A stretch of 64,000 bases of DNA, taken from contig JAHHSJ010000005.1 in NCBI GenBank assembly GCA_020025295.1, positions 5,538 to 69,537 of the forward strand, read 5' to 3'. The translations under genes were made by a program, and so were the position numbers. The DNA is from Oscillospiraceae bacterium (lineage in GTDB: Bacteria > Bacillota > Clostridia > Oscillospirales > Oscillospiraceae). The notes beneath the pieces are model-generated. The model searched no databases. It was not told where the DNA came from and saw only the letters and a list, made by a program, of their open reading frames with translations. Shown one piece after another: positions 31,742 through 38,223 of the stretch (the first letter of the stretch is position 1; every line of letters begins with the position of its first letter).

Positions 31742-31769
31742 TTGACAAAGGGGGCGAAGGGAGTATAAT
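31742..31769 (+). promoter_or_regulatory. Near-consensus sigma-70 promoter of the atp operon (TTGACA-16-TATAAT)
   Basis: The hexamers lie at 31742-31747 and 31764-31769. AAGGAGGG and the atpB ATG follow about 30 nt downstream. Confidence 0.7.
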
Positions 31770-31802: not shown

Positions 31803-32609
31803 ATGGGGAAACGAAGCCTCAAGATTTTTATCAGTGTCATGTCCATTATCATGGTACTGCTGCTGATCGGAATCTTTCTGATCGGTGGAAGCCCCGCAGG
31901 TGAGTCTGTCAGTGGAGTGATGCGCGACTGCGTGCTTCATGAGCATGACAGGATCAACCTCTTCGGGGGGATGCAGGTGAATCCGGGTGCGATTTCGGCG
32001 TTTACCGTCACCGGAATGGTGCTGATTTTTGCGCTGATCGTACGAATTTTTGTAATTCCCAAATTCAAACTTGTACCTGGAAAGTTCCAGATGGTGCTGG
32101 AGCAGGCCGTCGGATTCTTTGATAATCTGGCAAAGACCAACAGCCCGGGGAGAAATTCGTTCCTGGGCGCCTATGTGTTTGCGGCCGGTGTGTACATCTT
32201 CCTCAGCACGCTGTTTGAGCTGCTGGGCCTTCAGGCGGTGACTGCACAGGGACATCCCGTCACCTTGCCTGCACCGCTTTCGGACATCAACGCCGCAATT
32301 GCTATGGGCTGCCTGTCCTATCTGGTGATTCTGTCCGGCGGTATCCTGTCCAACGGCATCAAGGGTGTGGGAAAGACGCTGAAGGAGTTCTCTCTGCCCA
32401 TCTCCATGAGCTTCCGTCTGTTCGGCGGTCTGCTGAGCGGCGCTCTGGTGAGTGAGCTGGTCTACTACTATGTCCAGCTGAGTTTTGTGCTGCCGGTCCT
32501 TGTGGGCGTCATGTTCACGCTGCTGCATGCATTGATTCAGACCTATGTTCTTACCCTGCTGACCTCTCTGTTCTACGGAGAAGTGTCGGAAAAGAAAAAG
32601 GCAGAGTAA
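31803..32609 (+). CDS. atpB: F0F1 ATP synthase subunit a
   Basis: This polytopic 268-aa protein carries the conserved Arg helix (ISMSFRLFGGLLSG). It is the first gene of the atp cluster. Confidence 0.85.
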   Translation: MGKRSLKIFISVMSIIMVLLLIGIFLIGGSPAGESVSGVMRDCVLHEHDRINLFGGMQVNPGAISAFTVTGMVLIFALIVRIFVIPKFKLVPGKFQMVLEQAVGFFDNLAKTNSPGRNSFLGAYVFAAGVYIFLSTLFELLGLQAVTAQGHPVTLPAPLSDINAAIAMGCLSYLVILSGGILSNGIKGVGKTLKEFSLPISMSFRLFGGLLSGALVSELVYYYVQLSFVLPVLVGVMFTLLHALIQTYVLTLLTSLFYGEVSEKKKAE

Positions 32610-32641: not shown

Positions 32642-33031
32642 ATGAATAAGATGCTGAAAAGAATTATGGTTAGCCTTTTGGTTGTAATTTTGGTTTGTGC
32701 AACTGCAATCCCCGTGTTCGCAGTGGGCGGCGCTGATGATGCCAAGAAGGATCAGGCTGTCACCACCGCAGCGGAGACCGAGACGGAAGAGACTGCTGAG
32801 GACAACAGCATTGGCGCCAAGGCCATCGGTGCCGCTATTGCTGTGGGTCTGGCCGCTGCTGCCGGTGCAATCGGCATGGGCATGGCAGTCGGTAAGGCTA
32901 CGGAAGGTATTTCCCGTCAGCCTGAGGCAGAAGGCAAGATCAGAACCACCCTTATGCTGGGTCTGGTGTTTATCGAAACGGCAATCATCTATGCCCTGAT
33001 CATTGCTATCCTGGTCATCTTTGTGTTGTAA
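32642..33031 (+). CDS. atpE: F0F1 ATP synthase subunit c with a ~55-aa N-terminal extension (signal-peptide-like helix + acidic linker)
   Basis: The C-terminal 75 aa form a canonical c hairpin (GAIGMGMAVGKATEGISRQPEAEG...GLVFIETAIIYALI). The N-terminus is MNKMLKRIMVSLLVVILVCATAIPVFAVGGADDAKKDQAVTTAAETETEETAEDNS. Confidence 0.85.
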   Translation: MNKMLKRIMVSLLVVILVCATAIPVFAVGGADDAKKDQAVTTAAETETEETAEDNSIGAKAIGAAIAVGLAAAAGAIGMGMAVGKATEGISRQPEAEGKIRTTLMLGLVFIETAIIYALIIAILVIFVL

Positions 33032-33048: not shown

Positions 33049-33537
33049 ATGCCATTAAATATTGATTGGCAGCAGATTTTGCTGCATTTGTTTAACTTTG
33101 CTCTTCTGTTTACCATCCTGTATGTGCTGCTCTATAAGCCGGTGAAGAAGTTCATGGACCAGAGAAGCAATTACTATAAGGAACTGGACGAGAAGGCGAA
33201 GAAGAGCGTGGAAGACGGCGCTGCCGCTCAGGCACAGTATCAGCAGCAGCTGGATACGGCCAAGGATGAGATCGACGCCATGCGTGCCAAGGCCAGCAAG
33301 GAAGCCAGCCAGCTGAGCGAGACCATCATTGCTGAGGCAAAGGAAGAGGCCTCTCATATCATCGCAGACGCAAAGACCGAGGCCAACCGTGAGCGTAAGC
33401 GCATTTTGGCCGGTGCCGGGGAAGAGATTTCTCAGATCGTGACCGACGCCGCTGCAAAGCTGGTGTTCCCGGATGCGGACAGCGCCTATGAGGACTTCTT
33501 GACCGCAGTTGAAGGAAGTGAGCAGGATGAGCGATAA
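33049..33537 (+). CDS. atpF: F0F1 ATP synthase subunit b
   Basis: The 162-aa ORF has one N-terminal TM helix followed by a long charged helix (KELDEKAKKSVEDGAAAQAQYQQQLDTAKDEIDAMRAKA). Confidence 0.85.
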   Translation: MPLNIDWQQILLHLFNFALLFTILYVLLYKPVKKFMDQRSNYYKELDEKAKKSVEDGAAAQAQYQQQLDTAKDEIDAMRAKASKEASQLSETIIAEAKEEASHIIADAKTEANRERKRILAGAGEEISQIVTDAAAKLVFPDADSAYEDFLTAVEGSEQDER

Positions 33538-35263
33538 AAGACCGATGCAGGCCTTTCTGGTTTCGGCTAAGGCTCCTTCTGCCGAGCATGAAGCTCGGTT
33601 CCTGACCTTCCTGACTAAGAAGTACGGAGAGGGCATTGAGCTGGTCTGGAAGAAGGACGAAACCGTGAAGAACGGCTTCCGTCTGGAAGTCGGAAGCGAG
33701 ATTTACGACTGGAGTGCTCAGGGCCGCTTTGCTCAGTTCAAGAATGCACTGGGCAGCATCAAGGCCGAGAACGATGTGATTCCCCTGCTGAAGGAGAAGG
33801 TCGGCAATTGGGTGCCGGAGGCATACGCCGAAGAGCGAGGCATCGTGCAGTCCGTCGGTGACGGTATTGCCACGGTGTCCGGTCTGGAGCACGCCACCTA
33901 CGGCGAAGTGCTGCTGTTTTCCGGCGGAATTCGCGGCATGGTGCAGGAACTGGACGAGAACGGCGTGGGCTGCATCCTGTTCGGTGATGACGAGCAGATC
34001 AGCGCCGGCAGCATTGTCTGCAGAAGCGGAAAGCCGGCCGGTATTCCGGTGGGCCATGGTATGCTGGGCCGTATTGTCAACGCACTGGGCGCACCTATTG
34101 ACGGCAAGGGTGACATCGAGGAAGAGGCCTTCTACCCGGTGGAAAAGCCCGCTCCGGGCATCATTGACCGCCAGCCGGTCAATGCTCCTCTGGAGACCGG
34201 CATTCTGGCCATTGACTCCATGTTCCCGATTGGCCGGGGCCAGCGTGAGCTGATTATCGGCGACCGCCAGACCGGCAAGACCGCCATTGCCATTGATACC
34301 ATCATCAACCAGAAGGGCAAGGATGTCATCTGCATCTATGTGGCCATCGGCCAGAAGGCCAGCAGCATTGCCCAGCTGGCGCAGAACCTGAAAAAGCACG
34401 GCGCTATGGATTACACCATCATCGTGAATGCCAGCGCCAGTGAGCCGGCCCCCTATTTGTATGTGGCGCCTTACGCCGGCTGTGCCATCGGTGAGTACTT
34501 CATGGAGCAGGGCAAGGATGTGCTGATCGTCTACGACGACCTTTCCAAGCACGCCGTGGCCTATCGTACCCTGAGCCTGCTGCTGGAGCGTTCTCCCGGT
34601 CGTGAAGCCTATCCCGGCGATGTGTTCTATCTGCATTCCCGTCTGCTGGAGCGTTCTGCTCACCTGAGCGACGCCAAGGGCGGCGGCAGCATGACCGCTC
34701 TGCCGATTGCAGAGACCCAGTCCGGCGATGTGTCCGCTTATATTCCCACCAATATCATCTCCATTACCGACGGCCAGATTTTCCTGGAAAGCGACCTGTT
34801 CTATTCCGGTCAGCGTCCCGCCGTGAATGTGGGCCTGTCCGTGTCCCGTGTGGGCTCTGCGGCACAGTACCCGGCCGTGAAGAAGGCCTCCGGCGCACTC
34901 CGTCTGAGTCTGGCCCAGTACCGTGAGATGGAAGTCTTTACCCAGTTTGCCAGCGATCTGGACGCCGCTACCAAGCGGCAGCTGAAGTTCGGCACCGAGC
35001 TGATGACCATTCTGCGTCAGAAGCAGTTCAGCCCCTTCAAGATGCACGAGCAGGTGATTTTGCTGGTGGCTGCGCTGAACAATGCATTCCAGAATGTGGA
35101 GCTGGACTCCGTCCTGTCCACATCCAAGGATATGCTGGCGTATTTCAATACCAACTACGCTTCTCTTTGCAAGGATCTGGAAACCAGTGGTGACCTGACC
35201 GACGAGAACAAAGAGAAGATCATTGAAATTGCACGGGAATTCACGCAAAAAGCCGGGTGGTGA
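33527..35263 (+). CDS. atpA: F0F1 ATP synthase subunit alpha carrying an in-frame N-terminal delta (OSCP) C-terminal-domain-like segment
   Basis: Residues of about 1-75 (AFLVSAKAPSAEHEARFLTFLTKKYGEGIELVWKKDETVKNGFRLEVGSEIYDWSAQGRFAQFKNAL) fit the delta C-terminal pattern. The rest is a normal alpha subunit (Walker A GDRQTGKT). There is no stop codon between the two parts. The ATG at 33527 has GAAGGAAG upstream. Confidence 0.85.
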   Translation: MSDKRPMQAFLVSAKAPSAEHEARFLTFLTKKYGEGIELVWKKDETVKNGFRLEVGSEIYDWSAQGRFAQFKNALGSIKAENDVIPLLKEKVGNWVPEAYAEERGIVQSVGDGIATVSGLEHATYGEVLLFSGGIRGMVQELDENGVGCILFGDDEQISAGSIVCRSGKPAGIPVGHGMLGRIVNALGAPIDGKGDIEEEAFYPVEKPAPGIIDRQPVNAPLETGILAIDSMFPIGRGQRELIIGDRQTGKTAIAIDTIINQKGKDVICIYVAIGQKASSIAQLAQNLKKHGAMDYTIIVNASASEPAPYLYVAPYAGCAIGEYFMEQGKDVLIVYDDLSKHAVAYRTLSLLLERSPGREAYPGDVFYLHSRLLERSAHLSDAKGGGSMTALPIAETQSGDVSAYIPTNIISITDGQIFLESDLFYSGQRPAVNVGLSVSRVGSAAQYPAVKKASGALRLSLAQYREMEVFTQFASDLDAATKRQLKFGTELMTILRQKQFSPFKMHEQVILLVAALNNAFQNVELDSVLSTSKDMLAYFNTNYASLCKDLETSGDLTDENKEKIIEIAREFTQKAGW

Positions 35264-35268
35264 TTTGT

Positions 35269-36174
35269 ATGCCCAGTACAAAAGAAATCAAAAACCGTAT
35301 CAAAAGCGTTCAGGATACCCAGAAGATCACCGGCGCCATGCACCTGATTGCAGCCACCAAGCTGCAGCGAGCCAAGGCGGAGTTTGATAAGACCAGACCG
35401 TATTTTGATGCGGTCAAGGGTGAGATCAAGCGTATTTTCCGTACGGATGAGGACATTGACAGCCGTTACTTCTATCCTGTGACCGGCGAGCATGACTTTG
35501 AAGGCGCATACGGCTATCTGGTCATTACCGCAGATAAGGGACTTGCCGGCGCTTATAACTTGAATGTGATTAAGCAGGCTCTTGCCATGATGAGCGCCCA
35601 CGACAATAATAAGCTTTATGTGGTGGGAGAGTATGGCAGACAGTATTTCGCCACCCATAAAATTCCCATCGAGAAGAGCTTTCTCTATACGGCACAGAAT
35701 CCGACGATGCACCGTGCCAGAGAGATGAGCTCCATTCTGGTGGACGCATTCAATAAGGGCGAGCTGAAAAAAATCTTTGTCATTTATACCGATTTCCATT
35801 CCGGACTGAATGACGAAGCCTGTACTACCCGACTGCTGCCCTTTCACCGGGCCAACTTTACCACTCCGGCGCAGGAAAAAAGCATTGATGTTCCCTTTGA
35901 GTTTGAGCCGTCCATGGAGCAGGTGCTGGACAATATTATTCCCAGCTACATCACCGGCTTCATTTACAGCGCCCTTGTGTCCGGCTTCTGCAGCGAGCAG
36001 AGTGCCCGCATGACGGCCATGGACAGCGCAAATACCAATGCGGAAAAGCTGCTGGACGGTCTGGGAAGACAGTACAATCACATCCGACAGAGTGATATTA
36101 CCCGTGAGATTACGGAAATCGCGTCCGGCTCACGGAGCCTGAAACGAAACGCGGAAAAACATAGGAAGGAGTAA
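35269..36174 (+). CDS. atpG: F0F1 ATP synthase subunit gamma
   Basis: The ORF runs from MPSTKEIKNRIKSVQDTQKITGAMHLIAATKLQRA to ...ITREITEI. Confidence 0.9.
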   Translation: MPSTKEIKNRIKSVQDTQKITGAMHLIAATKLQRAKAEFDKTRPYFDAVKGEIKRIFRTDEDIDSRYFYPVTGEHDFEGAYGYLVITADKGLAGAYNLNVIKQALAMMSAHDNNKLYVVGEYGRQYFATHKIPIEKSFLYTAQNPTMHRAREMSSILVDAFNKGELKKIFVIYTDFHSGLNDEACTTRLLPFHRANFTTPAQEKSIDVPFEFEPSMEQVLDNIIPSYITGFIYSALVSGFCSEQSARMTAMDSANTNAEKLLDGLGRQYNHIRQSDITREITEIASGSRSLKRNAEKHRKE

Positions 36175-37580
<1,406 letters not shown>

Positions 37581-37581
<1 letters not shown>

Positions 37582-37991
37582 TGAAAACCTTTGAGCTGTG
37601 TATTCTGGCTGCGGATAAGCCCTTCTTTCAGGGTAAGTGTGAGTCCATCGTTCTGCCTACGACTCAGGGCGAGTATGGAATTCTGGCCTCTCACCGCAAC
37701 ACGGTCGCCGCAGTTGTGCCCGGAATGCTGCGCTATTGCACCGCCGACGGCGAACAGTACATCGCCAGCGTGTCCGAGGGTATTGTGAAGATCGAGAACG
37801 GGGATGTGCTGGTTTTGGTGGATACCATCGAGCGCCCCGAGGAGATCGACGCCAACGCAGAGCGTGAGCAGATCGAGCGGGCGAAAGAGGAGCTGCTGCA
37901 AAAGCAAAGTATTGCAGATTACCACGCTACCTGTGCCCGTATGGCAAGATCCCTTGCCCGACTCAAAACGAAAAGCTATAAGCATTTCTGA
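37581..37991 (+). CDS. atpC: F0F1 ATP synthase subunit epsilon
   Basis: The 136-aa ORF has a beta-sandwich plus helical-hairpin pattern. Its start overlaps the atpD stop by 1 nt. Confidence 0.85.
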
Positions 37992-38070: not shown

Positions 38071-38223
38071 TTTGTTTTCTCGGGTGTGACAGCTGACTGC
38101 GGACGCCGCAGGCTTTTTCCTGTGGATTTGCTTGAAAAGTGCCGACAGTAAGGTGCTTCGGAGCGCAGAGATTTGTCGGTTCAGACTAAATGAGAGGAAA
38201 GGAAGAAAATACAGGAAAAACAC

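Follow-up and report, generated by a model that had tools for sequence, protein, structure and literature searches.

The ion-to-ATP ratio sets the lowest membrane potential for ATP synthesis and, to our knowledge, until 2025 this ratio was thought to vary with c-ring size only. Two F-type enzymes, one engineered and one natural, now establish the number of stalks and of a subunits as a second variable (PMC12229609; PMC12002316). The first is the engineered deltaDeltaN-alpha FoF1 of Bacillus PS3 (Ueno et al., Nat Commun 2025; PDB 9JC1; PMC12229609), in which residues 2-104 of delta are deleted and residues 105-178 are fused to alpha, and which carries as many as three stalks with one a subunit apiece, has a H+/ATP ratio of 5.8, and makes ATP at low proton motive force. 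The second is the natural two-stalk, two-a F1Fo of Chloroflexus aurantiacus, solved in 2025, in which a shortened N-domain of delta dimerises (PMC12002316). Natural delta-alpha fusions without the N-domain have also been named (Acidaminococcus fermentans, UniProt G4Q3K6, A0A1I2C5T3), with the multi-stalk state, untested there, judged to be ‘highly likely’ (PMC12229609), and in the literature after Ueno 2025 no paper on natural delta-alpha fusions was found. Here we consider such a fusion in a 64,000-nucleotide (nt) stretch of a gut Oscillospiraceae genome (GCA_020025295.1, contig JAHHSJ010000005.1, positions 5,538 to 69,537 of the forward strand), referred to in its full length as the window, and all coordinates below are those of the window, on its + strand, unless a contig is named. 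The window contains one F-type atp operon, in which a single gene (33527..35263) encodes a C-terminal domain of delta (delta-C) followed in frame by a complete alpha subunit. This architecture is already in print (Ueno 2025) and is not new as a finding; what is added is its stepwise origin, the fixed spacing of its two parts, its linkage to a long subunit c (70/79 loci), and a cultured carrier.

Fusion of a delta C-terminal domain to alpha

The protein in question, of 578 amino acids (aa) and 62.8 kDa, is composed of two readily recognizable parts. Residues 7-75 (33545..33751) match positions 103-172 (of 172) of the Pfam OSCP model (PF00213), with 32.6 bits (E 1.1e-7) for the 83-aa piece alone and 28.1 bits for the whole protein, both above the gathering cut-off of 22.3 bits, and residues 81-575 match the NCBIfam atpA model TIGR00962 with 731.3 bits (cut-off 484.45). 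Residues 76-104 (33752..33838) comprise a linker and the retained N-terminal helix of alpha, with P86 and L87 invariant, and the F1 alpha core follows (33839..35260), with its beta-barrel, its nucleotide-binding domain, in which the Walker A motif GDRQTGKT occupies residues 245-252, and its C-terminal helical domain (Pfam ATP-synt_ab_N, ATP-synt_ab and ATP-synt_ab_C). The delta and alpha parts are in one frame, with no stop or frame change between them. The N-terminal helical bundle of delta is absent, just 6 residues preceding the delta-C match, and atpF ends 11 nt past the ATG. A second OSCP match was not found when all six frames of the assembly were searched (E<=10); the assembly, of 1.98 Mb in 80 contigs, is a metagenome-derived draft whose 96% completeness limits the proof of delta's absence. 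Delta-C is part of every alpha translated from this gene, which encodes the genome's sole F-type alpha and its sole delta-like sequence.

The structural evidence agrees. As the full-length AlphaFold2 (AF2) model, built on 25 sequences, was poor (mean predicted local distance difference test score, pLDDT, of 64; template modelling score, TM, of 0.45 to 9jc1) and served for match ranking only, residues 1-108 were remodelled with 54 sequences, resulting in a predicted four-stranded sheet with two helices (strands 8-13, 38-43, 52-55, and 58-61; helices 19-33 and 64-76, in the order strand-helix-strand-strand-strand-helix), with pLDDT of 77-89 over the domain, and in a further helix, 84-94, corresponding to the N-terminal helix of alpha. 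Among PDB structures searched with Foldseek, the top 44 matches of the extension are delta/OSCP or b-delta chains, save three 9jc1 delta-alpha chains, with root-mean-square deviations of 1.7-4.3 Å over 64-96 columns, except for 6tdu_AM (18.6 Å), and they include the Chloroflexus chain 9itj_S (second-best) and the PS3 chain 6n2y_I. The delta signature G-x5-G-x3-D-x-S-x2-GR (G50, G56, D61, S63, G66, R67) is invariant or nearly so, and the motif of the C-terminal tail of subunit b, here YEDFL, is kept as x[DE]xF[LIFM] in all architecture groups of the family. With both of these conserved, delta-C of the fused protein may be considered a candidate binder of the b2 tail.

The original prediction, made from the letters of the window, had described an operon of the order a-c-b-fused open reading frame (ORF)-gamma-beta-epsilon, with neither a separate atpH nor atpI, and an ORF that starts 11 nt inside the end of atpF, resembles the C-terminal half of delta over its first ~75 residues, lacks the delta N-domain, and continues without a stop into a normal alpha. 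This observation is confirmed and is correct in every particular: the gene order is as stated, the ATG is at 33527 and the TAA of atpF ends at 33537, the profile matches fall as described above, the OSCP search of the assembly returns the fused ORF only, and no ATP-synt_I match is above its cut-off. The interpretation that accompanied it is supported in part, namely for the fusion and the missing N-domain, but not for the proposed dual product, which is discussed below.

Conservation and selection

The same architecture is far from unique to this genome. A search with residues 1-100 of the fused protein (NCBI, ENA, and Logan assemblies) returned 43 protein clusters, all of identical domain composition and 563-600 aa long. 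When one genome per species was scanned with the N-terminal 108 aa, relatives were found in 228 species; most of these are Clostridia of the gut and rumen assembled from metagenomes, and two cultured strains of Hominicoprocola fusiformis (CLA-AA-H188 and CLA-AA-H269) are among them. The same operon is found in two independently assembled close relatives (L063 and L064), whose start context, GAAGGAAGTGAGCA(G/T)GATG, is common to them and to the window gene. Of the 80 best loci, 68 encode the delta-C motif in the same frame as the Walker A motif of alpha, at a distance of 195-197 aa, and this fixed spacing points to a tight structural constraint that would act on the intact chain. Against L063 and L064, the ratios of nonsynonymous to synonymous substitution rates (dN/dS) are 0.05-0.09 for the extension and 0.04-0.08 for the alpha core, these values being approximate since dS to these relatives is high (0.6-2.6); a clade-wide estimate over nine genera was discarded, synonymous sites being saturated (proportion of synonymous differences, pS, ~0.72), and the two close relatives were used instead. 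Together, these observations indicate that the extension is under purifying selection and that the fusion is a real, selected gene.

Origin of the fusion within the family

As to the origin of the fusion, OSCP matches in 121 genomes of the same family reveal a variety of architectures, the window's type recurring alongside operons with free delta and with full fusions. Delta may be free (~180 aa), it may be present in full length in ORFs of 664-706 aa, which are full delta-alpha fusions and include one from a same-genus genome, or it may be reduced to delta-C, in ORFs of 583-612 aa (the window's type), in ORFs of 741-777 aa with a b-like start, in one alpha with two tandem delta-C modules, in one b-deltaC fusion, and in free-standing mini-delta genes of ~75-80 aa. 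The best 150 matches of a phylum-wide OSCP survey are all free delta, and ~20 of the 331 genomes surveyed have weak matches only.

The alpha core was used for a maximum-likelihood tree (48 rows). In it, the window falls in a well-supported delta-C-alpha clade (clade A), nested in a group (98/97) whose other members are full-length delta-alpha fusions; one further full-length fusion and one free-delta operon join at the next wider level (99/98). Grouping all the N-domain-less fusions together is rejected (approximately unbiased, AU, test, p 1e-79), as is grouping the full-length fusions together without the delta-C forms (p 3e-59), while a single loss of the N-domain within that group is not rejected (p 0.18); the groups were fixed by architecture before the tree was built, and the tests were picked after the first tree had been seen. 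Similarity of the window's delta-C to that of the full fusions is detectable, and a DWS motif is common to both, whereas no similarity to the family's free deltas is detectable. The likely order of events, as far as trees and motifs indicate, is from free delta to full fusion and then to loss of the N-domain, and the same data indicate at least three origins of N-domain-less delta within the family.

A number of individual loci illustrate this variety. One example is the mini-delta genes (L052, L053, L055, L056), which are located between atpF and atpA and encode delta-C only (e.g., MKRPVLTIAPSFDE...YDASFSSRL); they are free-standing, and therefore the N-domain was lost without a covalent tether in a third clade of the family. 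Another example is the 227-aa b subunit of L054 (G063:C1), with delta-C at its C-terminus and a plain alpha at the same locus. In L020 (G120:C13), the delta-C-alpha gene is immediately preceded by a second b-like gene, whose end encodes a delta-C-like part, and in L021 (G018:C17:38055-38537), the nearest neighbour of the window in the alpha tree, two tandem delta-C modules precede alpha in a 681-aa frame. The ORFs of 741-777 aa (L022, L043-L049) form a separate clade, each encoding a membrane-anchored b-like part, delta-C, and alpha, with a second, free b gene upstream.

How many stalks?

The gene very probably encodes a fused stator element as described above. According to the mechanism proposed, all three alpha copies of the F1 head would bear delta-C at the N-terminus, followed by the normal N-terminal helix of alpha, and each delta-C would, together with this helix, provide a docking site for the b2 C-terminal tails via the canonical delta-b contact, with the covalent link taking over the anchoring otherwise given by the delta N-domain. 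Where a delta N-domain is present, it occupies the three-fold axis of the head and allows one stalk only; with this domain gone, the head would be symmetric, leaving room for one to three b2-a stators. More than one stalk with more than one a subunit would move proportionally more ions per ATP, and this would suit ATP synthesis from the small ion gradients of Rnf and of a decarboxylase pump in a fermenter. That the covalent fusion may replace the contact between the N-domain of delta and the N-terminus of alpha had been part of the original prediction, and it is plausible, as the engineered PS3 enzyme, built on the same plan, assembles and is functional (PMC12229609). The prediction had also seen a problem of stoichiometry in having three delta-C domains per enzyme; the problem is real, but in print it is treated as a feature, with up to three stalks possible (PMC12229609).

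Whether more than one stalk is indeed assembled is a matter of likelihood. The reading favored here, in which the enzyme would usually carry at least two stalks and at least two a subunits, has nearly an even chance, and the broader proposition, that the window enzyme and those of the ~228 related species of gut and rumen Clostridia would usually run two or three b2-a stators per c-ring, is a tentative one, of somewhat less than an even chance. Several lines of evidence support multiple stalks. One is the spontaneous assembly of several stalks, about two on average, in the engineered PS3 enzyme (PMC12229609). Another is the presence in the same family of untethered mini-deltas and of b-deltaC-alpha fusions. 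A third is the presence in the genome of low-energy ion pumps, as RnfD (contig C5), the beta subunit of a Na+-pump-type decarboxylase (OAD; C1:84144-85328), and a membrane pyrophosphatase (C1:88677-90719) are encoded. A natural precedent is the two-stalk, two-a F1Fo of Chloroflexus aurantiacus, whose stalk number is set by its altered N-domain of delta (PMC12002316).

Subunit c may also be of relevance. It possesses a signal-peptide-like, acidic N-terminal extension of ~55 aa before the two-helix hairpin, and such a long c is found together with the fusion at 70 of 79 loci of related species (L065-L144) and in all the clade-A operons of the family survey, while operons with a full delta-alpha fusion or a free delta encode a c of 76-90 aa without the extension; as the long c and the fusion belong to one lineage, their co-occurrence is not independent evidence of a functional link. 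The clade-specific extension may be part of an adaptation to an Fo with multiple a subunits. The best PDB matches of subunit c are H+ c14/c15 rings, Met79 (32876-32884) takes the place of the Gln that belongs to the ion site in H+ (Spirulina Q29) and Na+ rings, and Thr follows the carboxylate Glu (FIETAIIY), the ion specificity not being readable from the motif.

Other considerations weigh against multiple stalks. The engineered multi-stalk enzyme is slower than the wild type (PMC12229609). Clade A appears to stem from full fusions that still possess the N-domain, and therefore the fusion itself would not have needed several stalks, while the loss of the N-domain could be neutral decay after tethering. 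The stalk count for the window enzyme and its natural relatives is a prediction drawn from sequence. The genome also encodes the A and B subunits of a V-type ATPase (C1, ~41-44 kb), and thus more than one physiological role is conceivable for the F-type enzyme.

The same considerations lend weight to the alternative of a single stalk with a single a subunit, in which one delta-C would bind b2 and two would remain idle, the fusion merely replacing the anchor of the delta N-domain, which would have been lost as the tether made it dispensable. This is a serious contender, though one of clearly less than an even chance. It is favored by the nested position of clade A among the full-length delta-alpha fusions (a separate full-fusion clade being rejected, p 3e-59), and therefore by an order in which the fusion would have come first and the loss of the N-domain later, as expected for a redundant part, as well as by the kinetic cost in the engineered enzyme and by the fact that single-stalk particles are common in cryo-electron microscopy of that enzyme. 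However, the free, untethered mini-delta of the same family, consisting of delta-C only, implies that the loss of the N-domain needs no tether, the engineered enzyme assembled its additional stalks spontaneously, and nothing would be left in F1 to exclude further stalks.

If multiple stalks are the rule, then the number of ions per ATP would be doubled or tripled, and the enzyme would represent a natural ‘low-gear’ F-type ATP synthase for weak fermentation gradients. In either case, the engineered design occurs naturally and is common in gut and rumen Clostridia, with a probable stepwise evolution and repeated loss of the N-domain, and the cultured carrier Hominicoprocola fusiformis, with the same operon, long c included, makes the multi-stalk question directly testable.

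Alternative products of the gene

The scenarios considered so far assume that the chain remains intact. Post-translational cleavage in the low-confidence linker (residues 76-83) would instead free a mini-delta of ~8 kDa. Free delta-C-only genes do occur in the family, and the linker is the segment least conserved and least confidently modelled, but no conserved cleavage motif was seen in it, the spacing between delta-C and Walker A is fixed at 195-197 aa in 68 loci, and the engineered fusion functions uncleaved, all of which make such cleavage improbable. The junction peptides of the window protein are LEVGSEIYDWSAQGR and AENDVIPLLK.

Even less probable is the production of two proteins from one gene, a long delta-C-alpha and a plain alpha of ~53.5 kDa started from an internal GTG (33776..33778), as the original prediction had suggested, which could result in one delta-C per complex. 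The GTG is in frame and well placed, with AAGG 11 nt upstream, and it is also present in the relatives L064 and L038. However, it encodes V84, with which a conserved [VI][IV]PL[LM] motif begins, and the homologous codon in 73 fused relatives is ATC in 38, GTC in 11, ATT in nine, GTG in seven, ATA in four, GTT in two, and GTA in two, so that the position is start-capable in 7/73 only, while 40/73 possess no ATG, GTG, or TTG from -12 to +6 codons, and a Shine-Dalgarno-like word is found near the junction in 2/73 only. In the close relative L063 and in the cultured Hominicoprocola fusiformis the codon is GTC. A conserved internal start was also not found in the full-length delta-alpha fusions of the family. 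An internal promoter at the junction was considered as well and rejected, as no promoter-like site was found near the delta-C/alpha junction or the GTG. Overall, the comparison indicates that no conserved internal start is present that would yield a short alpha.

Finally, an artefact of assembly or sequencing, or a decaying pseudogene joining atpH and atpA by error, for which the draft state of the metagenome-assembled genome (80 contigs) could be invoked, can for all practical purposes be dismissed, being refuted as far as sequence data go by the recurrence of the architecture, in the 43 clusters drawn from three sources, the two independently assembled close relatives, and the 228 species genomes, two of them from cultured isolates, and by dN/dS below 0.1.

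The operon and neighbouring features

The operon is preceded by a sigma-70-like promoter-like site, TTGACA-16-TATAAT, with 12/12 consensus positions (31742..31769). The first gene, atpB (31803..32609), encodes the Fo subunit a of 268 aa (Pfam ATP-synt_A, E 7e-18), with the conserved Arg present within the motif SFRLFGG. It is followed by atpE (32642..33031), encoding subunit c of 129 aa, with the Pfam ATP-synt_C match on residues 62-124, and by atpF (33049..33537), encoding subunit b of 162 aa, of normal length and without a delta part (Pfam ATP-synt_B, residues 10-138). Downstream of the fused gene are atpG, encoding gamma (35269..36174; Pfam ATP-synt, E 4e-87), whose ATG start was located, atpD, encoding beta (36181..37581), and atpC, encoding epsilon (37581..37991; Pfam ATP-synt_DE_N and ATP-synt_DE), and terminator-like hairpins are present 3' of the latter (38097..38125).

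Further peculiarities are seen in operons of the family. In L025 (G022:C74) and L054 (G063:C1), gamma and beta share one open frame of ~770 aa with no stop between them; should a single chain be translated from it, a rotor and a stator subunit would be joined covalently. L019 (G017:C10), labelled as the same genus as the window, encodes a 664-aa full delta-alpha fusion, an 84-aa c, an atpI-like small ORF, and a subunit a that is barely alignable to that of the window, which suggests that the whole atp operon may have been replaced within the genus.

Comparison with known systems

Known enzymes of unusual stator composition can be compared to the window enzyme, from the more distant to the closest. 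In V/A-type ATPases two or three EG stalks attach separately to the head, leaving the three-fold axis free (PMC12002316), but their subunits are unrelated to those of the window enzyme, and they possess a single a subunit. N-ATPases lack delta (PMC5706428) and are thus similar in having no free delta, but they possess a long b. The extension does match the C-terminal end of the long-b model TIGR03321 weakly (E 0.011); an assignment to the N-ATPases is nevertheless rejected, as alpha scores 616.9 bits versus the TIGR03324 cut-off of 750.5, b is normal, and the gene order is not atpDCQRBEFAG. In the b-delta protein of mycobacteria (PDB 7JG5), delta is likewise joined covalently to a neighbouring stator subunit, and the delta-C fold matches, but this is a full-length delta on b, in one copy per enzyme, while in the window enzyme it is delta-C on alpha, in three copies. 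A fusion of the mycobacterial type is rejected for the window, as its b, of 162 aa, matches ATP-synt_B over residues 10-138 and contains no OSCP segment, and a delta N-domain hidden at the end of b is rejected on the same domain calls.

The Chloroflexus enzyme is, like that of the window, a natural F-type enzyme. Its delta-C sits on the crown of alpha and is likewise folded into four strands and two helices. Unlike in the window, its delta is a free subunit of 157 aa with a dimerising N-domain, and it has exactly two stalks; with no delta N-domain of any length and with delta-C covalently bound to alpha, the window enzyme is not of the Chloroflexus type. The natural fusions of the Acidaminococcus type have the same described architecture, a delta without the N-domain on alpha, but these examples are outside the Oscillospiraceae long-c clade and are likened to the window gene by description, not by sequence.

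The closest counterpart is the engineered PS3 enzyme. It differs in that the window fusion is natural, with ~25% identity in delta-C and with a c subunit carrying the long N-terminal extension, and in that stalk number and ion/ATP ratio are measured values for the PS3 enzyme and predictions for that of the window. With the full AF2 model as query, the three 9jc1 chains rank first among structural matches, and residues 16-567 of the window protein (P0001) align with chain 9jc1_I. Both possess delta-C only, placed in frame before a complete alpha with its N-terminal helix, neither has a separate delta, and the chains are of nearly the same length, 580 aa in the engineered enzyme versus 578 aa in the window.

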